From contig JAZDHG010000031.1 of NCBI GenBank assembly GCA_043806135.1, forward strand, positions 1,110-65,109: DNA of 64,000 nt, in the 5' to 3' direction. The translations under genes and the position numbers were made by a program. Origin of the DNA: Candidatus Omnitrophota bacterium. Lineage in GTDB: Bacteria > Omnitrophota > Gorgyraeia > B26-G9. Below are positions 1 to 54,635 of the stretch, piece after piece. The notes beneath the pieces are model-generated. The model did no database searches and was not told the origin of the DNA. It worked only from the letters and a program-made list of their open reading frames with translations. Position 1 is the first letter of the stretch. Each line of letters starts with the position of its first letter.

Positions 1-942
1 GACGGCAGGACCATGGTTAGAATAGCCGGCAGAATGGTGGATTTGCGGGTATCGACGCTTCCGACAATATTCGGTGAGAGTGTTGTTATCCGAATCCTTG
101 ATAGGGCTAACGTGCAGTTATCACTTAATGAAATAGGATTTGAACCTGATACCAGAGAAAAAATAAGGGAATTGATTAAAAAGCCCTATGGCATAATCTT
201 GAGTACAGGTCCCACAGGTTGCGGAAAGACTACCACGCAATATTCTGCTTTAAGTGAAATCAATTCAATAGAAAAGAAGATCATTACCGTAGAGGATCCG
301 GTTGAATTTGACTTGCCCGGGCTGATCCAAGTTTCTGTACGCCCAAAAATAAACATGACTTTTCCTGTGGCGCTTCGCCATATTTTGCGTCAGGATCCTG
401 ACATTATTATGGTCGGAGAAATCCGTGATACGGAAACAGTACAAATGGCCATACATGCTTCTTTAACCGGACACCTTGTTTTCTCCACTTTGCATACCAA
501 TGATGCGCCCAGTGTTATTACCCGGCTTATTGATATGGGAGTGGAGCCTTTTTTGATCGCTTCTTCCATCGAGGCGATTTTAGCCCAGAGACTTGTTCGG
601 TGTATTTGCCATAAATGTAAACACGAATATACTCCGACGGAAGAATCCTTAAGGGACGCGGGTATAAGTGAAAATGAGCGCAAGGAAAAAAAATTCTACA
701 AGGGCCGAGGTTGTGAACAGTGTAATCATTCAGGATATAAAGGCCGTTCCGGAATATTTGAATTACTTATTCTTGATGAGGAAATAAGATCGCTTATTCT
801 GGATAAAGTGCCTATTGTCCGATTAAGAGAACAGGCGATAAAAAGCGGAATGCGTACTTTAAGAGAGGATGGATTGCTTAAAGTTTTTTCCGGGCTGATA
901 ACCTTAGATGAATTGGTTGCGATAACAACGGCGTATTTATAA
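1..942 (+). CDS. Type II secretion / type IV pilus assembly ATPase (GspE/PilB family), C-terminal part; 5' end lies outside the window
   Basis: The reading frame is open from nucleotide 1. There is a Walker A motif GPTGCGKTTT, and the conserved secretion-ATPase core runs VEDPVEF…GEIRD…FSTLHTN. A C-terminal tetracysteine CHKC…CEQC forms the zinc motif typical of GspE/PilB. Confidence 0.9.
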   Translation, partial: DGRTMVRIAGRMVDLRVSTLPTIFGESVVIRILDRANVQLSLNEIGFEPDTREKIRELIKKPYGIILSTGPTGCGKTTTQYSALSEINSIEKKIITVEDPVEFDLPGLIQVSVRPKINMTFPVALRHILRQDPDIIMVGEIRDTETVQMAIHASLTGHLVFSTLHTNDAPSVITRLIDMGVEPFLIASSIEAILAQRLVRCICHKCKHEYTPTEESLRDAGISENERKEKKFYKGRGCEQCNHSGYKGRSGIFELLILDEEIRSLILDKVPIVRLREQAIKSGMRTLREDGLLKVFSGLITLDELVAITTAYL

Positions 943-1185
943 CAAGTAAAAAGAATATTAGCTCATAGCTGATAGCTCATGTGAAAAGCAAAAGGCAACG
1001 GCAGCGATGCCCGTATCGGTTTAAAAGGCAGCGGTAACGGCTAGAAGCGGATAAGTTTTGTGGAAAATAGTTTTTTAAGCGAACAAAGAGATCGTTCGTC
1101 CCTCGTCTTAATGAGCGGAGCGAATGGTCATCCATCGTCCTTCGTTTTTAGATGCAATACGCAATACTAAAAAAGAGATTAATTT

Positions 1186-2439
1186 ATGAAAAAAGAACTG
1201 TTTAATTATACTGCGGTCGACAGAGAAGGAAAAGATCTAAACGGACAGGTAGAGGCCGTTAATCTTAATGACGCTCTGAGCCAGATACGCCAAATGGGTA
1301 TATTCCCGTCTCATGTTCTTGCCGCAGATGAGAGAGTTGAATCAAGCAATATTTTTTCAGCAGTAATTGGAAAATTAAATATTATAAAACGAGGCGTTGC
1401 TAAGTTTAAACCGGAAGACCGGGTTGTTTTTACCAGGCAGCTTGCGGTGCTTCTAAATGCCGGTTTACCGCTAGTAAGAGGACTTCAGACGATTAATAAG
1501 CAGATGCGGTTTGGAAGAATGAGGGTAATGCTTGATGATATTATTGATATGATTCAATCCGGAAAAACTTTCAGCGGGGCGCTTGCGTATTATCCGGATT
1601 CTTTTTCCCGGGTTTATATAAACGTGGTAAAATCAGGGGAGACCGGCGGTGCTCTGGATGAAGTTCTTAAGAGGCTGGCTGATTACCTTGAAAGAAATCA
1701 CAGGATTTCGCAGCGCATAAAAGCGGCCCTGATCTATCCTTGTCTTGTTTTGGTTGTTTCAATCGTTATACTCGGTTTTATAGTTGCTTTTGTAATACCG
1801 CGCTTTATGGAATTATTTCAGAATACAGGCATTGCCTTGCCTCTTTTGACCAGGTTGCTGCTCGCATTTAGTAATTTTTTAGTGGAACGGTGGTATTTGT
1901 TATTTGGAGCAATTGTTTTAATGTTTATAAGTTATAAGCTGCTTTTGCGCAATTATGTTTTTCGCTATTTTAATGATAAATTAATCCTGAATATTCCTGT
2001 TTTCGGGCTTTTGATCCAGAAAGTAACTGCGTCCAGTTTTGCCAGAACTCTGGCTACTCTCTTAGAAGGCGGAGTCCCGATCCTTAGGGCGCTTGAACTG
2101 ACAAAGCAGGTCAGCGGTAATGAGGTAATAGCTAAGGCGATTAACTCGGTTTATGATAGTGTCCGGGAGGGAGGTTTTATCTCAAAAGTGCTTGAGAGTA
2201 CTGAGGTTTTCCCCCAGTTGATGGTCAATATGATAGCTGTAGGAGAAGAAAGCGGGTCTTTAGATAAAATGCTCTCAAAAGTAGCCGATACATATGAAGA
2301 GGAAATCGAGATTACAGCCGGAACCCTGACATCCTTGCTTGAGCCTTTGCTTGTTATTGTCATGGGAGTTGTGGTTGGAGTTATAGTTCTTTCCATGTTC
2401 CTGCCGCTCATTACTTTAATAAACTCTCTGAGTGTCTGA
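1186..2439 (+). CDS. Type IV pilus / T2SS inner-membrane platform protein (PilC/GspF family)
   Basis: The 417-aa product has two GspF-type repeats and three transmembrane segments. It lies directly downstream of the PilB-like ATPase, and an RBS precedes the ATG. Confidence 0.85.
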   Translation: MKKELFNYTAVDREGKDLNGQVEAVNLNDALSQIRQMGIFPSHVLAADERVESSNIFSAVIGKLNIIKRGVAKFKPEDRVVFTRQLAVLLNAGLPLVRGLQTINKQMRFGRMRVMLDDIIDMIQSGKTFSGALAYYPDSFSRVYINVVKSGETGGALDEVLKRLADYLERNHRISQRIKAALIYPCLVLVVSIVILGFIVAFVIPRFMELFQNTGIALPLLTRLLLAFSNFLVERWYLLFGAIVLMFISYKLLLRNYVFRYFNDKLILNIPVFGLLIQKVTASSFARTLATLLEGGVPILRALELTKQVSGNEVIAKAINSVYDSVREGGFISKVLESTEVFPQLMVNMIAVGEESGSLDKMLSKVADTYEEEIEITAGTLTSLLEPLLVIVMGVVVGVIVLSMFLPLITLINSLSV

Positions 2440-7841: not shown

Positions 7842-10418
7842 ATGCAAAGAAAAAAACTATATCTTATTGACGGTAATTCTTACAGCTATCGGGCCTTTTA
7901 TGCGATCGCTGATTTGACCAATTCAAGCGGAAAGCCGACCGGAGCTGTTTTTGGATTTGTAAATATGCTCAATAAGCTGCGCAATGAAGGCAAGCCCGAT
8001 TATCTGGCGATCTGCTTTGATCTAAAGGGGCCGACATTGCGTCATGAGAAATTTCATGAGTATAAGGCGCACCGCAAGCCTATGCCCGATGATCTGCAGA
8101 TTCAAATGCCTATTATAAAAGAAGTTGTGGGAGCTTACGGTATCCCTGTTTTTCAATTGACCGGGTATGAGGCAGATGATATTATAGGGACACTTGCGGT
8201 TAGTTTTAAAGATAAGGTTGATGTTTTTATTGTCAGCGCTGATAAAGATATGTTGCAACTTGTTGATAAATATGTTAGTATTTATTCTCCGCAAAAAGAG
8301 GATGCAATCACTGATGAGAACAAAGTTTTTGAACGCTATGGTGTTAAGCCCAACCAAATTACTGACCTTTTAGCTTTAGCCGGTGACAGCTCAGATAATA
8401 TTCCAGGAGTTCCGGGCATAGGCCCGAAAACAGCTGCAGAATTAATCGGAGAGTTTGGAAGTTTAGAAAATATCTTAAAAAATACGCATAAGATCGAACA
8501 GAAAAAAAGGAAACAGCTGCTTGAAGAGTTTTCTGAACAGGCTCGAATGAGCAAAGAACTGGCAACCATTGTAAGGGACGTGCCGATAAAGGTAGATTTA
8601 AAAAGGCTTGAGGGCGCGGGAGAAGATAAAGAACTCTTAAAAAGGCTCTTTCGTGAACTTGAATTCAAGAATCTTTACAGAAATCTTCTCAAAGATGATC
8701 CTTCGGAAAATGCCGAATTAAAGGTTGAGATAATTGAAACTGCGAAAAAACTTGAATTATTTTCAAAAAAGCTTTGCAAGGAAAAAGAATTTTCTCTTGT
8801 AATACAAAAATCCGATGATAAAATCTCCAATACGCTAAAAAGCTTAGAAATAAGTTTTCATGAAAAAGATTTCATAAGGATCAATCTTAGTAAAAAATTA
8901 ACCATAGATGACTTAAAGAAATTTCTTAAGCCTGTTTTTAAAAAATCAGATATTTTAAAAATAGGCTATGATTTAAAAACAATATGTGTTCTGCTTGATG
9001 CTTGCGGCATTTATTTAGAAGAGCCGTTCTTTGATATAATGGTCGGGGCATATCTGCTTGAACCCGGCGGCGAAAAGAGTACAATATCTGATATTGCCGG
9101 ATTTTACCTGGGGCGTAATGTTGATCAGCGGCTTCAGGTTTGCGAACAGATATCTTTGCGGGATATTCTGCTTAAGGAGCTTAAAACAAAGAAATTACAG
9201 GAATTATTTTGGCGGGTAGAGATGCCGCTGATCAGGATACTGGCTTCAATGCAGAGAAATGGGATCCGTATCGATGAAAAATATCTTTTGAAGCTGGGAG
9301 AAGAGGTTGATAAGAACTTAAATACGCTTACAAACAAGATCTTTAGTATCAGCGGTTGTGAATTTAATATAAATTCTCCCAAGCAGTTAAGCGAGATCCT
9401 GTTCGAGCGGTTAAAGCTGCCGGTAATAAAAAAAGGAAAAAGCGGACCATCGACAGATGTTGATGTTTTAATGCAGCTTGCCGATAAACATGCACTTCCC
9501 GCGATGATCCTGGAGTATAGAGAACAGGCAAAATTGAAATCAACTTATATTACCGGTTTGCTTGAGCTGGTCAATGCGAAGACGCATAAAATACATACCA
9601 CTTTTAATCAAACGGCTACCGCAACCGGGCGCTTAAGCTCAAGTAATCCTAATCTGCAGAATATACCGATCAGGACCGAGGCCGGACGGCAGATAAGGGC
9701 AGCGTTTATAAGTGAAACTGAATCTTCGCAGCTTCTTTGCGCTGATTACTCGCAAATTGAGCTGCGGGTGCTGGCGCATCTATCTCGGGACAGCATTCTG
9801 ATAAAAGCGTTTAAAGAAAAGCGCGATATCCACACCTTTACCGCTTCCCTGGTTTTCGGCGTAGCGCAGGATAATGTTACTGAAAAGATGCGCAACATGG
9901 CAAAAAGAGTTAATTTCGGTATTATTTATGGAATGGGACCTTATGCTTTGGCCCGGGATATCGGGGTCAGCCACAAGCAGGCAAAAAAATTTATTGATGA
10001 GTATTTCAAACGTTATCCGCAAGTTACTGCTTATCTGAACGGTGAAATTAAAAAAGCACAGGACATGGGATATGTGACGACACTTTTTAACCGTCGGCGT
10101 TATATACCGCAAATTAACGCTAAAGATGCAATGCAGAGGAGTTTTGCCGAGAGAACAGCAATGAATACACCGATTCAGGGCTCGGCTGCGGACTTAATAA
10201 AGGCGGCAATGATCGCTATTTACCGGCAATTAAAAAAAGAGAACTTAAATACTAAAATGCTTTTGCAGGTTCATGATGAACTTGTATTTGATGTGCCGGA
10301 TAAAGAAATGAATGAGGTTAAAAAAATTGTTAAAGATAATATGGAAAATGTATTGGAACTGGATGTTCCGATAGAAGTTAGTTTTAAGGCCGGAAAGAAC
10401 TGGAGAGACATAAAATAA
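7842..10418 (+). CDS. polA: DNA polymerase I
   Basis: The 858-aa product starts with the 5'-nuclease N-terminus LYLIDGNSYSYRAFYA. A 3'-5' exonuclease-like middle domain follows, and the polymerase motifs are DYSQIELR, RRxxKxxNFGxxYG and QVHDELVF. Confidence 0.95.
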   Translation: MQRKKLYLIDGNSYSYRAFYAIADLTNSSGKPTGAVFGFVNMLNKLRNEGKPDYLAICFDLKGPTLRHEKFHEYKAHRKPMPDDLQIQMPIIKEVVGAYGIPVFQLTGYEADDIIGTLAVSFKDKVDVFIVSADKDMLQLVDKYVSIYSPQKEDAITDENKVFERYGVKPNQITDLLALAGDSSDNIPGVPGIGPKTAAELIGEFGSLENILKNTHKIEQKKRKQLLEEFSEQARMSKELATIVRDVPIKVDLKRLEGAGEDKELLKRLFRELEFKNLYRNLLKDDPSENAELKVEIIETAKKLELFSKKLCKEKEFSLVIQKSDDKISNTLKSLEISFHEKDFIRINLSKKLTIDDLKKFLKPVFKKSDILKIGYDLKTICVLLDACGIYLEEPFFDIMVGAYLLEPGGEKSTISDIAGFYLGRNVDQRLQVCEQISLRDILLKELKTKKLQELFWRVEMPLIRILASMQRNGIRIDEKYLLKLGEEVDKNLNTLTNKIFSISGCEFNINSPKQLSEILFERLKLPVIKKGKSGPSTDVDVLMQLADKHALPAMILEYREQAKLKSTYITGLLELVNAKTHKIHTTFNQTATATGRLSSSNPNLQNIPIRTEAGRQIRAAFISETESSQLLCADYSQIELRVLAHLSRDSILIKAFKEKRDIHTFTASLVFGVAQDNVTEKMRNMAKRVNFGIIYGMGPYALARDIGVSHKQAKKFIDEYFKRYPQVTAYLNGEIKKAQDMGYVTTLFNRRRYIPQINAKDAMQRSFAERTAMNTPIQGSAADLIKAAMIAIYRQLKKENLNTKMLLQVHDELVFDVPDKEMNEVKKIVKDNMENVLELDVPIEVSFKAGKNWRDIK

Positions 10419-10566
10419 AGACATCCTATAAAGAGAAAGCAGGAGGATGTCTTGATTACATAGATGAAAAAAGAGATGACAGTGATTAAGGAAAGAGATT
10501 CTTTTTATTTAGGTTGTAAAAATTTTTGTAATACAATACAGCCATCAAGGCAGAAGATTAATGGTT

Positions 10567-10610
10567 TAATCTTCGTAATCTATTGATAATCGTTGTAATC
10601 AGGTGTAATC
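10567..10610 (+). promoter_or_regulatory. Array of five (G)TAATC pentamers at ~10-bp phasing upstream of glgA
   Basis: TAATC starts at 10567, 10576, 10587, 10596 and 10606, giving spacings of 9, 11, 9 and 10 nt. The stretch reads cgtaatctattgataatcgttgtaatcaggtgtaatc. Confidence 0.5.
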
Positions 10611-10646
10611 CAGCTTATGTGTGAGGATTATACCGGGGGGAGAATA

Positions 10647-12050
10647 ATGAAAGTATTGTTTTGTAGTTCGGAGGTTGTGCCGTTTGCAAAAACAGGGGGG
10701 CTTGCGGATGTTGCAGGGACTCTGCCGCCGGCATTGGAAGCTGCCGGTGTGCAGATAAAGATTGTAATGCCGAGATACAAGTGTGTTGATGTTAAGAAAT
10801 TCAAGCTGAAAAAAATTGATGATGATACATTCTCAACTACGATCGGAAAGAATGTAGAGGTTTTGTTCCTTGAGAAAAAACGTTTTTTTGACAGAGACGG
10901 ATTGTATCAGCAAAATGGTCTGGATTATCCTGATAATCTGGACAGGTTTACTTATTACTGCCTGCAGACGCTTAATCTGATAAAGAAAATAAATTTTAAG
11001 CCTGATATTATTCACTGCAATGACTGGCAGACCGGGCTGATCCCGATTTATCTTAAAGAAACATTTAAAAGCGATCCGTTTTATAAAAACATAAAGATAG
11101 TTTTTACTATACATAATCTTGGATATCAGGGACTTTTCGCAAAAGAGGAATTTGCCATAACCGGATTGAGTAAAGAGCTGTTTTCAGTTAACGGGCTTGA
11201 ATTTTACGGTAAAATCAATCTGCTCAAAGGAGGTTTATTGTTTTCAGACCTCATTAGCACGGTAAGTCCGACTTACGCTAAGGAAATTCAAAGTGCTGAA
11301 TTCGGATGCGGGCTTGAAGGAGTTTTGCAGAAAAGAAAAAAGGATATTACCGGAATATTAAACGGTATAAATTATAATGAGTGGGATCCCATGAAAAATA
11401 AAACCCTGGTAAAGAATTATGGGCCTGATTCGATAGAAGGCAAATATGAAAATAAAGAGGACCTGCAAAAACTCGGCAAACTTAAGGTAGATAGGAAAAT
11501 CCCGCTTTTGGGAATAGTCACCAGGCTTGCGGACCAGAAGGGATTGGACATACTCGCAGAAGTAATCGAAGAGGTTGTGCAAATGCCGGTTCAGTTTATT
11601 TTGCTTGGTACGGGAGAGCTCCGTTATCATAAACTATTTGAAGTTATAGGGAATAAGTATAAGAACACATTGATTCATTTGAAATTCGATGCTACCCTTG
11701 CCTATAAGATTTATGCGGGCTCGGACATCTTTCTGATGCCTTCATATTATGAACCCTGCGGTCTCGGTCAGCTTATAAGCCTTAATTTTGGAACAATTCC
11801 TCTGGTGCGCAGGACAGGCGGACTTGCAGATACTGTGGAGGATTTTGATCCTTTTACTAAAAAAGGAAACGGGTTTGTGTTTTCCAATTATCAGGCAGGA
11901 GCCTTACTGGAGACGATCAAACGCTCTCTATGTGTTTATAATGATGCTAAGACTTGGAAGGAATTGATCACAAGAGCGATAAAAAGTGATTTTTCCTGGG
12001 AAAAATCAGCCAAAGATTATGTTAATCTATATAAAAGCCTTAAATCTTAG
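10647..12050 (+). CDS. glgA: Glycogen synthase (ADP-glucose type, GT5)
   Basis: MKVLFCSSEVVPFAKTGGLADV is the GlgA N-terminal KTGGL motif. An RBS GGGGGGAGAATA lies upstream of the ATG at 10647. The ORF-track start at 10617 is probably too early. Confidence 0.9.
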   Translation: MKVLFCSSEVVPFAKTGGLADVAGTLPPALEAAGVQIKIVMPRYKCVDVKKFKLKKIDDDTFSTTIGKNVEVLFLEKKRFFDRDGLYQQNGLDYPDNLDRFTYYCLQTLNLIKKINFKPDIIHCNDWQTGLIPIYLKETFKSDPFYKNIKIVFTIHNLGYQGLFAKEEFAITGLSKELFSVNGLEFYGKINLLKGGLLFSDLISTVSPTYAKEIQSAEFGCGLEGVLQKRKKDITGILNGINYNEWDPMKNKTLVKNYGPDSIEGKYENKEDLQKLGKLKVDRKIPLLGIVTRLADQKGLDILAEVIEEVVQMPVQFILLGTGELRYHKLFEVIGNKYKNTLIHLKFDATLAYKIYAGSDIFLMPSYYEPCGLGQLISLNFGTIPLVRRTGGLADTVEDFDPFTKKGNGFVFSNYQAGALLETIKRSLCVYNDAKTWKELITRAIKSDFSWEKSAKDYVNLYKSLKS

Positions 12051-15907: not shown

Positions 15908-15958
15908 GGTTCTTTCTTGTTTAAGATGAACGAAAGAACCTGATTATACTGATTAAAA
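15908..15958 (-). repeat. 52-nt dispersed hairpin repeat, copy C (minus orientation)
   Basis: The reverse complement is ttttaatcagtataatcaggttctttcgttcatcttaaacaagaaagaacc. It matches the copies at 44944 and 54584. Confidence 0.6.
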
Positions 15959-16069
15959 GCCCGATTATATGGGGTATTCTTAATTTGTTTTAATAACTTG
16001 CAAATCATTAAGTTATAGAAAACTATTCAACTTAATTAAGAATGGCCCAAAAAATGCCATTTTCAGGAA

Positions 16070-16297
16070 ATGCCTATGGAAAAGCTGGTAGCAGTGGTTT
16101 TGATCGCGTGTACAATCTCATTGATCTTGGTTAGAGGCATATATGCGCAGCAAAAAGGCGGCAGCCGTGTTATATATGAAGAAAGCACAACTTTAAAAGA
16201 TGCAAAACACCGGTCTAAAATTCTATCTGAAATAGAGGCGCAAAATTCTCAGGGTGCGGATAATCCGGAACAAAAAAAATGCCGACAGATGACTTAA
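16070..16297 (+). CDS. Hypothetical secreted protein, N-terminal part (signal peptide); probably one gene with the following ORF, interrupted at an A8 run
   Basis: The product begins with the signal peptide MPMEKLVAVVLIACTISLILVRGIYAQQ. The ORF ends just after the homopolymer at 16275-16282. Confidence 0.35.
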   Translation: MPMEKLVAVVLIACTISLILVRGIYAQQKGGSRVIYEESTTLKDAKHRSKILSEIEAQNSQGADNPEQKKCRQMT

Positions 16298-18880: not shown

Positions 18881-18989
18881 ACACGAATAAACACGAATTA
18901 CACACTAATTAATATAAATATATCGATGTAAACAAGTAATGTTTTAAATCAGTGGTTTTTGTGTTAGATTTGTGAGAATTTGTGTATTT

Positions 18990-43623: not shown

Positions 43624-43736
43624 GTTCACGGAAAAATACAGTTTTATCGTCTTTAATCTGTGAAATCTTGGCTCTAATCTCTGGAATCAGGGTCTGATGA
43701 GTTTTTCAGCAGACCCTAAATAACGATAGATTTTAA

Positions 43737-44825: not shown

Positions 44826-44943
44826 TCGCTAACCGGCTTTAAAAACGGGCTATTCTTTTTTAGGGTGGAAGAATTTTTGTAAGATAGTAAGAATGAAGAG
44901 GCTAGATAGAAACAATAATGGACAACGAATCTGTGTAATCCTG

Positions 44944-44994
44944 TTTTAATCTGTGAAATCAGGTTCTTGCTGTTATTCTAAACAAGAAAGAACC
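44944..44994 (+). repeat. 52-nt dispersed hairpin repeat, copy A (upstream of purB)
   Basis: Read directly: ttttaatctgtgaaatcaggttcttgctgttattctaaacaagaaagaacc. The stem is GGTTCTT/AAGAACC with a variable loop. The flank cgaatctgtgtaatcctg at 44927-44943 is also shared with copy B. Confidence 0.6.
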
Positions 44995-45090
44995 AAAAAA
45001 CCCGCCCAAAACCGGATTATAAAAGGTTTGACGTAACCTGAATAATTTGATATTATTAAGTATTCCTGAACTATATAGAGAGGTGGAACT

Positions 45091-53278: not shown

Positions 53279-54562
53279 ATGAAAGTTCTGGTCATAGGCT
53301 CAGGAGGACGCGAACATGCACTTGTCTGGAAAATCGCACAGTCTCCTTTGGTAGAGAAAATTTATTGTGCCCCGGGTAATGGAGGCATTGAAGATATTGC
53401 CGAGTGCCTTGATATAGCTGCAGATGATATTAACGCTTTGCTTAATTTTGCCATTCGGGGAAAAATTGACATTACTGTTGTCGGTCCGGAAGCCCCGCTT
53501 GCTGCGGGCATTGTTGACCTGTTTGAAAATAAGGGTTTGAAAATATTCGGTCCAAGTAAACTTGCCAGCCGGTTGGAATCAAGTAAGGTATTTGCAAAGA
53601 ATATAATGAAAAAATATAATATTCCTACCGCGGGTTTTGAAGAATTTACAAATTACGAAGATGCTCTTAGCTTTGTAAAAGATGTCAAGAGACCTTTAGT
53701 GATAAAAGCAGACGGCCTATGTGCCGGTAAGGGAGTTTTTGTCTGTGCAACGATAGAGGAACAGGAGCAGGCCATAAACTCTATATTAAAAGATAAGACT
53801 TTTGGCGATTCCGGCGGCAGGATAATTATTGAAGAATGTCTTGTCGGTCAGGAGGCTTCTATCATTGTTATTAGTGACGGCGATAATGTAATAACCATGG
53901 CCTCTTCTCAAGATCATAAGCGCATATTTGACGAAGATTTGGGGCCTAATACCGGAGGTATGGGGGCTTATTCCCCTGCGCCTGTAGTTACGAAAGAAGT
54001 TTTAAAATTCATAAAGGAAAGAATAATAATGCCGACAATAAAGGGGATGAAATCTGAGGGTACTCCTTTCAGCGGGGTTTTATATGCAGGCGTTATGATA
54101 ACCGAAAATGGACCTAAGGTCCTTGAATTTAATGTGCGTTTCGGTGATCCGGAAACACAGGCAATCCTGCCCAGGCTAAAAAGTGATCTGCTGGAATTGA
54201 TCTTAAAATCCGTTGATAAGAAATTAGGAAGACATACTCTGGATTGGGACACAAAAAACTGTGTTTGCGTTGTTGTCGCCTCAAGGGGCTATCCTGGAAA
54301 ATATGAAAAAGGAAAACTTATCAAAGGCTTAAGTGATGTTAATTTCCCTAAGGAGGGAATTGTGTTTCATGCCGGGACAAAAAAGCAGAATGGTAAAATT
54401 TTAACCAGCGGAGGAAGGGTGCTTGGGGTAACCTCAATGGGAAATGATATAAAATCAGCGATTGATAACACCTATGCGGTACTCGATAAGATAAGCTTTG
54501 AGGGCATGTTTTTCCGCAGGGATATCGGACAAAAAGCACTGAAAAAAGTTTTTTCTAACTAA
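53279..54562 (+). CDS. purD: Phosphoribosylamine-glycine ligase
   Basis: MKVLVIGSGGREHALVWK is the GARS N-terminus. The product has an ATP-grasp fold. Confidence 0.9.
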   Translation: MKVLVIGSGGREHALVWKIAQSPLVEKIYCAPGNGGIEDIAECLDIAADDINALLNFAIRGKIDITVVGPEAPLAAGIVDLFENKGLKIFGPSKLASRLESSKVFAKNIMKKYNIPTAGFEEFTNYEDALSFVKDVKRPLVIKADGLCAGKGVFVCATIEEQEQAINSILKDKTFGDSGGRIIIEECLVGQEASIIVISDGDNVITMASSQDHKRIFDEDLGPNTGGMGAYSPAPVVTKEVLKFIKERIIMPTIKGMKSEGTPFSGVLYAGVMITENGPKVLEFNVRFGDPETQAILPRLKSDLLELILKSVDKKLGRHTLDWDTKNCVCVVVASRGYPGKYEKGKLIKGLSDVNFPKEGIVFHAGTKKQNGKILTSGGRVLGVTSMGNDIKSAIDNTYAVLDKISFEGMFFRRDIGQKALKKVFSN

Positions 54563-54583
54563 TAGTATATCAGTGTAAGCTGG

Positions 54584-54635
54584 TTTTTAATCGGTGAAAT
54601 CAGGTTCTTTTATTCCATTTAAACAAGAAAGAACC
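54584..54635 (+). repeat. 52-nt dispersed hairpin repeat, copy B (immediately upstream of purE RBS)
   Basis: Read directly: tttttaatcggtgaaatcaggttcttttattccatttaaacaagaaagaacc. The upstream flank cagtgtaagctgg at 54571 is also shared with copy A. Confidence 0.6.

Follow-up and report, generated by a model that had tools for sequence, protein, structure and literature searches.

Two purine genes, purB and purE, lie within a 64,000-nt stretch of DNA (the window, by which we mean the whole stretch analysed), and each is preceded by a copy of the same short hairpin repeat, raising the question of whether this repeat controls the two genes or belongs to a dispersed element that reached them by other means. 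An earlier note on this DNA described a 52-nt unit with three dispersed copies, initially entertained a purine-responsive riboswitch, and then favoured a small dispersed element such as a REP/MITE-like repeat, an sRNA family or a shared protein-binding module.

The three copies are real: the core AATCAGGTTCTT-N11-AAACAAGAAAGAACC has exactly three matches in the window and none in 100 shuffles, and an identical 38-nt core is common to all three copies, where none would be expected by chance. These core matches are:

15908-15945, minus strand, exact match to the core pattern
44957-44994, plus strand, exact match to the core pattern
54598-54635, plus strand, exact match to the core pattern

The stem GGTTCTT/AAGAACC is kept in all three copies (three such inverted repeats found vs. 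0.01 expected), and in most copies it reaches 8-9 bp, as GGTTCTTT(C)/(G)AAAGAACC, around a 15-nt loop. Folded as single-stranded DNA, the hairpin has modest energies of -5 to -7.3 kcal/mol and z-scores from -1.0 to -4.4. The TAATCnGTG motif, said to recur in other intergenic regions, does so: allowing at most one mismatch, AATCnGTGnAATC occurs 8 times in the window vs. 1.5 expected, and no shuffle reached 8.

We then took a census of the core by scanning one representative genome per species with the pattern CAGGTTCTT-N8-14-ACAAGAAAGAACC. Besides the window, this identified 33 sites in 32 loci (L001-L032) from 11 MAGs, 9 of them labelled Candidatus Omnitrophota and 2 Planctomycetota/Planctomycetia, with all carriers being MAGs and with up to 9 core loci per MAG. 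Several of these loci are at contig ends, where repeats are often found. Because the scan used an exact pattern, part of the uniformity seen in the right-end core is a product of the search itself. The full element is considerably longer than the hairpin, at about 160-235 nt with sharp ends GGGTCATTCTT...GAAAGAACC; in long-flank alignments, conservation begins abruptly at GGGTCATTCTTAATTAAG and ceases abruptly at ...AAACAAGAAAGAACC, with flanks that are unrelated between copies. Element lengths across copies range from 139 to 335 nt with no ORF, and no reading frame is kept because copies vary by 1-nt loop indels.

In its anatomy the element is a large imperfect palindrome. Its terminal inverted repeats are about 23 bp long and imperfect (left GGGTCATTCTTAATTAAGTTGAA; right, as reverse complement, GGTTCTTTCTTGTTTAAGTTGAA), and are found in 14 of 14 aligned copies, with the two end consensuses matching at about 19 of 23 positions and the ends of the L010 copy at 20 of 23 aligned positions (plus gaps). 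Within a single copy, the inverted-repeat alignment is not significant alone (score 23 vs. a shuffle maximum of 27), and co-variation of the left end with the right-end "loop" across subfamilies also falls short of significance, its value being attained in 857 of 5000 permutations. Each tip also folds back on the element: the left tip pairs with an internal copy of itself (GGGTCATTCTTAATT with AATTAAGAATGCCCC), while the pairing of the right tip (GGTTCTTTC with GAAAGAACC) is the hairpin of the earlier note. Inside the tips lie subterminal 13-bp repeats—two GATTACAnnGATT on the left and two AATCnnTGTAATC on the right—and the TAATCnGTG motif is these same subterminal repeats.

Seen against this anatomy, the 52-nt unit had the wrong boundaries: it consists of the right terminal-inverted-repeat region and two subterminal repeats of the longer element, and, in copies A and C, takes in no more than their right-hand third. 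The hairpin is not the unit either, as an nhmmer profile of full-length copies from other genomes, which we used to place the window copies, extends them as follows:

44847-44994, plus strand, copy A: 148-nt short variant (profile positions 1-202, E 3.8e-20)
54554-54635, plus strand, copy B: 5'-truncated remnant (profile positions 122-202, E 3.3e-16)
16048-15908, minus strand, copy C: 141-nt short variant (profile aligning as 16048-15970 and 15969-15908)

Copy A runs from left end GGGCTATTCTT to right end ...AAACAAGAAAGAACC and lacks both left-arm GATTACA repeats, with its right-arm 13-bp repeats at 44928-44940 and 44948-44960 and its terminal hairpin at 44962-44994. The 8-mers on either side of it, TTAAAAAC at 44839-44846 and AAAAAACC at 44995-45002, match at 5 of 8 positions and are a decayed duplication. 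Copy C has its left end GGGCCATTCTT at 16048 and its right end at 15908, flanking 8-mers that match at only 3 of 8 positions, and an internal deletion that is the same as in L024, L015 and L026 from another genome. Copy B starts within the last purD codons (stop at 54560-54562), retains two 13-bp repeats and the terminal hairpin, and ends 28 nt 5' of the purE ATG (54664).

These placements also alter how several smaller features are read. The upstream flank reported as shared by copies A and B (c.gtgtaa.c.tg) is present, but it is a further 13-bp subterminal repeat, AATCnGTGTAATC. Likewise, the stem is conserved as had been described, but the "variable loop" within it sits in the right terminal inverted repeat, and its reverse complement resembles the left end. 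The prfA-prmC gap around copy C, which had been called gene-free, contains a 75-aa ORF at 16070-16297 (plus strand), 22 nt past the left end of the copy; the N-terminus of this ORF is signal-peptide-like (MPMEKLVAVVLIACTISLILVRG...).

The sequences that immediately flank the element indicate how it spreads. Among 21 copies with both ends and enough flank, we found target-site duplications of exactly 8 bp, identical in 10 copies and matching at 7 or more of 8 positions in 14. Nine different shifts of one flank left no copy at 7 of 8 or better, and re-pairing the flanks at random in 2000 trials produced 0.56 such copies on average and never more than 4. By length, exact duplications of 8 bp are found in 10 copies and those of 5, 6, 7, 9, 10 or 11 bp in 0-1 copies each. 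The duplicated 8-mers are 91% A+T; exact examples, in which the 8 bases before GGG equal the 8 after ACC, include ATTATTAA, ATATTTTT, TAACTTAT, AAAATTGA, AAAAGATG and TTAATAAT.

Deletion variants carry these duplications as well. The 141-nt variant seen as copy C in the window is also present at L024—a non-orthologous locus, not prfA/prmC—with the perfect duplication AAAAATAT, and more generally variants without the left GATTACA repeats (141 nt) or without one right repeat (173 nt) are still duplication-flanked, so that the terminal ~25 bp probably suffice for mobility; the interior of the element may be a passenger. At L016, which is syntenic with the window (prmC, a murA-like gene, rpsP and trmD, at 36-66% protein identity), a full element flanked by ATATTTTT lies right after the stop codon of the murA-like gene, and the window is without an intact copy there. 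The near-complete copies in the window have decayed duplications (5 of 8 and 3 of 8), and we therefore infer their own mobility from their relatives.

We additionally looked at the window region orthologous to the filled L016 site, the intergenic stretch 18881-18979. It contains GAATTACACACTAATTAATATAAATATATCGATGTAAAC, which by eye is like the MITE centre GATTACAGAGATTAATTTATATTAGTATATCAGTGTAATC, and drew no nhmmer report at E ≤ 1; it may be a decayed old insertion.

Together, the inverted repeats, the 8-bp duplications and the dispersal make it very probable that the repeat forms the right-hand end of a MITE, a non-autonomous DNA transposon carried by genomes of Candidatus Omnitrophota, from one of which the window almost certainly derives, and they bear out the MITE half of the "REP/MITE-like repeat" proposed earlier, leaving the sRNA family and the shared protein-binding module without support. 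The refuting case named there, that the copies might be remnants of an IS terminal inverted repeat, comes near to the result: copy B is a 5'-truncated right end, and the 52 nt noticed in copies A and C form the right-hand part of a longer element, but no parental IS was found. As a mechanism, we propose that a transposase encoded elsewhere in the genome would act in trans, binding the element ends, cutting the target with an 8-bp stagger and inserting the element, with A+T-rich intergenic DNA as the likely target.

The GATTACA-type interior of this MITE is shared far more widely than its ends. A metagenome scan for two GATTACAnnGAT units returned at least 120 loci, and internal AATCnGTGnAATC/GATTACA repeats are common to many other short palindromic metagenome elements. 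Among the matches listed, most loci that match the MITE profile do so only in the central ~90-nt GATTACA/TGTAATC palindrome and have other terminal hairpins, the commonest type being an element of about 152 nt with the layout GAGAGCTCTGAAAAA...GATTACA x2...TGTAATC x2...TTTTTCAGAAATCTC. This type and two further relatives in the window are:

L034, L052, L059, L097, L099, L120, L129, L140 and others: ~152-nt palindromic family with 5-bp duplications
10451-10616 of the window, matched by nhmmer on both strands (E 4e-5 and 3e-4): related element
43653-43716 of the window, plus strand, from profile match and sequence: related right-end-like fragment

The ~152-nt family and the Omnitrophota MITE have the central repeats in common but differ in their terminal hairpins and in duplication length (5 vs. 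8 bp); since only the central repeats are shared, the central module may have had a history of its own, apart from that of the ends. The related element at 10451-10616 consists of GATTACA/GATGACA repeats, a segment (ATTCTTTTTATTTAGGTTG) similar to the left end of the MITE and, last, three (T)GTAATC repeats, with no GGTTCTTTC hairpin. In the gap that contains it (10419-10616, between ORFs 7842-10418 and 10617-12050), another hairpin, AAGACATCCT...AGGATGTCTT, precedes the GATTACA/GATGACA repeats, and 10419-10616 as a whole is a rearranged or nested relative of the MITE. The fragment at 43653-43716 has two AATCnnTGnAATC repeats, AGG and then a terminal hairpin GGGTCTG-N13-CAGACCC with loop TTTTTCAG. 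The same layout recurs at about 2139-2180 of L004 (hairpin GGCCGGCTG...CAGCCCC, again with a TTTTTCAG loop), and this hairpin type is also found in the metagenome family with 5-bp duplications; the window and L004 segments look like the right-end fragment of another subfamily in two distant genomes. Both 43653-43716 and 10451-10616 belong to this wider GATTACA/TGTAATC group.

A protein-coding relative also emerged from the metagenome data. At 6 loci among the matches listed, repeat pairs 370-520 nt apart enclose a 122-aa ORF encoding a GxxExxY protein (TIGR04256, E 8e-37; PF13366, Pfam PDDEXK_3), with two GATTACAnnGATT upstream, two AATCnnTGTAATC downstream and an ATG that overlaps the second repeat. 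GxxExxY genes within such repeats are located at:

L105, 61-493
L057, 213-673
L035, 8854-9291
L148, 858-1297
L066, 1378-1969
L079
L197-L212

Loci picked by protein similarity alone have the same flanks, with the gene squeezed into the rpsK-rpsD or the pstB-phoU interval, and in such conserved operons the GxxExxY genes resemble selfish insertions. GxxExxY genes on plasmids (L153-L160, from Bacteroidota, Spirochaetota and Fusobacteriota) have other, lineage-specific short repeats, 3 of the 8 having nothing obvious. These flanks may be inverted, such as ACACAGAGA x2 in Bernardetia and CACAGAGGA x3 in Bacteroides finegoldii, or direct, such as those of ~65 nt in Prevotella and of ~45 nt, containing AATCnGTGAAAAT, in a Fusobacteria plasmid. 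A full-text literature search for the family name returned nothing on GxxExxY function. We also observed the same GC-rich mini-hairpin, CCTGCCTGCCG(G)CAGGCAGG, inside a GATTACA repeat both in the MITE copy at L008 (3806-4038) and upstream of the GxxExxY gene at L207/L211, which suggests shared ancestry or a further nested mini-element.

To return to purB and purE, the placement of copies across genomes bears directly on whether the element regulates its neighbours. All 36 of 36 copies are intergenic and both orientations occur: 21 run in the same direction as the downstream gene, 13 have their right end facing the 3' end of an opposite-strand gene, and the other 2 have no downstream gene within the locus examined. 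The 18 genes identified downstream of copies in other genomes comprise no purine gene; among them are trmD, rsmD, glgP, glycogen synthase, htrA, ftsW, lipB, hycI, an ECF sigma factor and a TonB receptor. Copy A does lie just 5' of purB, as stated previously, and ends 96 nt before its ATG, but it is upstream of a promoter-like site. This sigma-70-like purB promoter (TTGACG-17-TATTAT, 45028-45056), which we judged good, has its -35 box 33 nt past copy A, so that copy A is probably absent from the purB mRNA. Copy B does lie 5' of purE, between purD (recognized by GARS domains in the upstream ORF) and purE.

A cis-regulatory RNA controlling purB and purE, such as a riboswitch of purine, ZTP or PRPP type or a leader, would account for why two of the three window copies are sense-oriented 5' of purine genes, with copy B ending 9 nt before the purE ribosome-binding site. 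Yet this reading is contradicted, with copy C and 12 others facing the 3' end of an opposite-strand gene, with copy A sitting upstream of the purB promoter-like site, and with no purine-related gene among the 18 found downstream in other genomes. Rfam likewise offered no match: at gathering thresholds, the window and 16 loci yielded only a tRNA-Glu and an FMN riboswitch (at L003), and at E ≤ 10, copy A and one full-length copy returned only noise (the best being STnc410, at 16 bits vs. a cut-off of 50), so the Rfam check advised in the earlier note ended with no family match, purine, ZTP and PRPP models included. Nor does the folding of the element behave like that of a conserved RNA, as RNAalifold on 14 full-length copies predicted 19 pairs with 0 compensatory changes; it is sequence identity that maintains the stems, which is what protein-recognised DNA would show. 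Target-site duplications, moreover, point to insertion and argue against vertical conservation. We thus hold regulation of purB and purE by such an RNA to be extremely improbable, the earlier note was right to drop the purine riboswitch in favour of a dispersed small element, and the purB and purE copies owe their place to chance, as insertions or remnants within A+T-rich intergenic DNA, and are not purine regulators. A PurR/PurBox-like operator, suggested by the GAAC cores of the stem, was rejected as the copies are unrelated to purine genes. The FMN riboswitch at L003 (7158-7305, plus strand; RF00050, 100.6 bits) lies on the strand opposite to the local MITE copy, ~77 nt off its right end. 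Equally hard to sustain is a DNA module kept for host function, with transcription factor or nucleoid protein sites on the AATCnGTGnAATC repeats: the right-arm 13-bp repeats start 9-12 bp apart and span about two helical turns, and the motif is enriched in intergenic DNA of the window, but neighbouring genes have no common regulon, copies occur in both orientations with many at gene 3' ends, and the duplications and truncated copies point to insertion and decay, which leaves this explanation, too, with next to no probability.

Slightly less remote, though still very unlikely, is an independently transcribed sRNA family or a guide-RNA-like scaffold (omega-RNA/crRNA-like), in which a scaffold of ~200 nt would be followed by a variable 3' "guide". 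Such a scaffold would fit the sharp 3' conservation boundary followed by unrelated sequence, the A+T-rich -10-like boxes directly 5' of GGG in many copies, and an RNA fold z-score of -4.45 for a single copy. The boxes, however, are the 8-bp target duplications and are present 3' as well, for which reason we also rejected a reading of the -10-like box 5' of each copy as a promoter and transcript start. In addition to the absence of compensatory changes, no TnpB, IscB, Cas-like or other recurrent protein gene adjoins the copies, and deletion variants lose one strand of the predicted central helix while their duplications remain. IS200/IS605-type elements make no duplication, insert 3' of a fixed 4-5-nt target and have tnpA or tnpB nearby; an IS200/IS605-type PATE or omega-RNA locus was accordingly discarded, as here duplications are present, the left flanks are variable A+T-rich 8-mers and the neighbours are housekeeping genes. 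The GxxExxY cassettes raise a different alternative, namely that the element is REP/REPIN-like and was spread by a domesticated nuclease—with the GxxExxY PD-(D/E)XK protein as the candidate—instead of by a DDE transposase. This proposal draws on the 6 metagenome loci, among the matches listed, with a GxxExxY ORF between inverted repeat pairs, on the loci chosen by protein similarity with the same flanks (e.g., rpsK-[gene]-rpsD and pstB-[gene]-phoU), and on the great excess of ORF-less over ORF-bearing palindromes among the matches listed, a ratio like that of REPINs to RAYT genes. Against it, mobility of the REPIN/RAYT (HUH) kind leaves no target duplication, whereas duplications here are exactly 8 bp, lie outside the terminal hairpins and away from the GATTACA repeats, and persist in variants without half of these repeats. 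The ORF-bearing cassettes, for their part, have neither terminal hairpins nor duplications, and neither the window nor any of the 32 genome loci L001-L032 contains a GxxExxY gene. For these last reasons we set the GxxExxY link apart from the mechanism that moves the MITE, regard it as a side finding, and consider spread by this nuclease improbable, if less so than the RNA and host-function readings.

A separate idea concerns the repeats rather than the mobility of the MITE. The AATCnGTGnAATC/GATTACAnnGATT repeats could be cognate DNA/RNA sites of the GxxExxY nuclease, with the many ORF-less GATTACA palindromes of uncultivated bacteria, the MITE core included, as derivatives or targets of a selfish nuclease-gene cassette; we put this forward as speculative and, on balance, unlikely. 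If true, it would describe a system of the REPIN/RAYT kind that uses another enzyme fold and here rides on a transposon with its own ends. In either case, the shared repeats provide a concrete handle on a widespread protein family that has no known function and whose genes sit in conserved operons.

With the MITE as the preferred explanation, we searched for an autonomous partner that would encode the transposase. Among ~200 loci (~1.3 Mb), no transposase gene was bounded by these ends, and searches for end motifs paired 0.4-8 kb apart, for ORFs of at least 250 aa between inverted repeats and for multi-copy proteins gave no autonomous element. Candidates rejected in this search were an amidohydrolase gene, dxs between two palindromes, and a transposase-like ORF at L113 with different long inverted repeats. 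The last of these (914-2197, minus strand; 428 aa, with long inverted repeats TTTCCTGTGTTAGCAAAGTAATTATGTCCCC...) lies on a metagenome contig that also has a GATTACA repeat pair, and looks like an unrelated insertion sequence. The full element had no blastn match in plasmids and phages, and the right-end pattern had none in IMG/VR. An exact search with the purB protein of the window likewise returned no recorded entry. The GATTACA pattern did occur in IMG/VR, on 36 contigs, and the two inspected hold phage genes with intergenic repeats and no transposon ends. A full-text literature search for MITEs or insertion sequences in Omnitrophota returned nothing relevant, and the family is undescribed, although ordinary in kind.

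For the annotation of the window, these results remove a tempting false lead, as there is no purine riboswitch or sRNA before purB or purE, and they account for at least three odd intergenic stretches, which are copies or remnants of a transposon. For the phylum Omnitrophota, whose members are known almost solely from MAGs, they also document a family of mobile elements, one whose repeats break assemblies there, with several copies at contig ends.

Comparison with known systems places the MITE among several partial likenesses. Its 13-bp subterminal repeats are the two-plus-two inverted repeats of the GxxExxY cassettes (TIGR04256/Pfam PDDEXK_3), although the window elements, unlike the cassettes, have no ORF and carry extra terminal hairpins and target duplications. 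With REP, BIME and REPIN sequences it shares a dispersed, palindromic, intergenic arrangement of inverted short units, and the parallel with RAYT extends to a small nuclease gene (here GxxExxY) between the same inverted units and to ORF-less copies being far commoner among the matches listed. REPINs, which rely on HUH (Y1) enzymes for their movement, make no target duplication, whereas here duplications of 8 bp (or 5 bp) are found, the associated gene has a PD-(D/E)XK fold, and no RAYT-like or other recurrent gene was found beside MITE copies. Closer in kind are bacterial MITEs such as Correia, RUP and Nezha, which are likewise short, non-coding and intergenic, with inverted-repeat ends, fixed-length duplications, hairpin potential and deletion subfamilies. 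Correia and RUP elements duplicate TA; the present MITE differs from all three in its own ends, its 8-bp duplication and its host phylum, as well as in its modular ends, with terminal hairpins added to a central palindrome, the latter being common to other element families.

The ISL3 family offers the nearest match. ISArsp7 (ISL3) has 24-bp inverted repeats (IRL GGCTCTTCGCGGTTGGTGGTGAAT) and an 8-bp direct repeat (PMC6305408), and a Microcystis aeruginosa MITE with GGCTCTTCG ends and 8-nt direct repeats has been attributed to ISL3 transposases (PMC11448079). Our MITE and the ISL3 family have in common the 8-bp target duplication, inverted repeats of about 24 bp, a GGxTCxT start and a ...TGAA(T/C) end, with the MITE ends reading GGGTCAT and GGTTCTT and ISL3 ends GGCTCTT. 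By hand count, the right repeat GGTTCTTTCTTGTTTAAGTTGAAC, at the GGTTCTT end, matches the ISArsp7 IRL at 14 of 24 positions, and the GGGTCAT end matches this IRL at 12 of 24, which is a resemblance and no proof. Among the ~200 loci, no ISL3 (DDE_Tnp_ISL3) transposase gene bounded by the MITE ends turned up. The MITE differs from ISL3 elements in that each of its tips folds back on an internal copy of itself; the GATTACA-type subterminal repeats of its interior may be a further difference. Given the 8-bp duplication and the GGxTCxT ends, ISL3 appears, from these end sequences, to be the closest known signature, and we offer it as a lead rather than an assignment.
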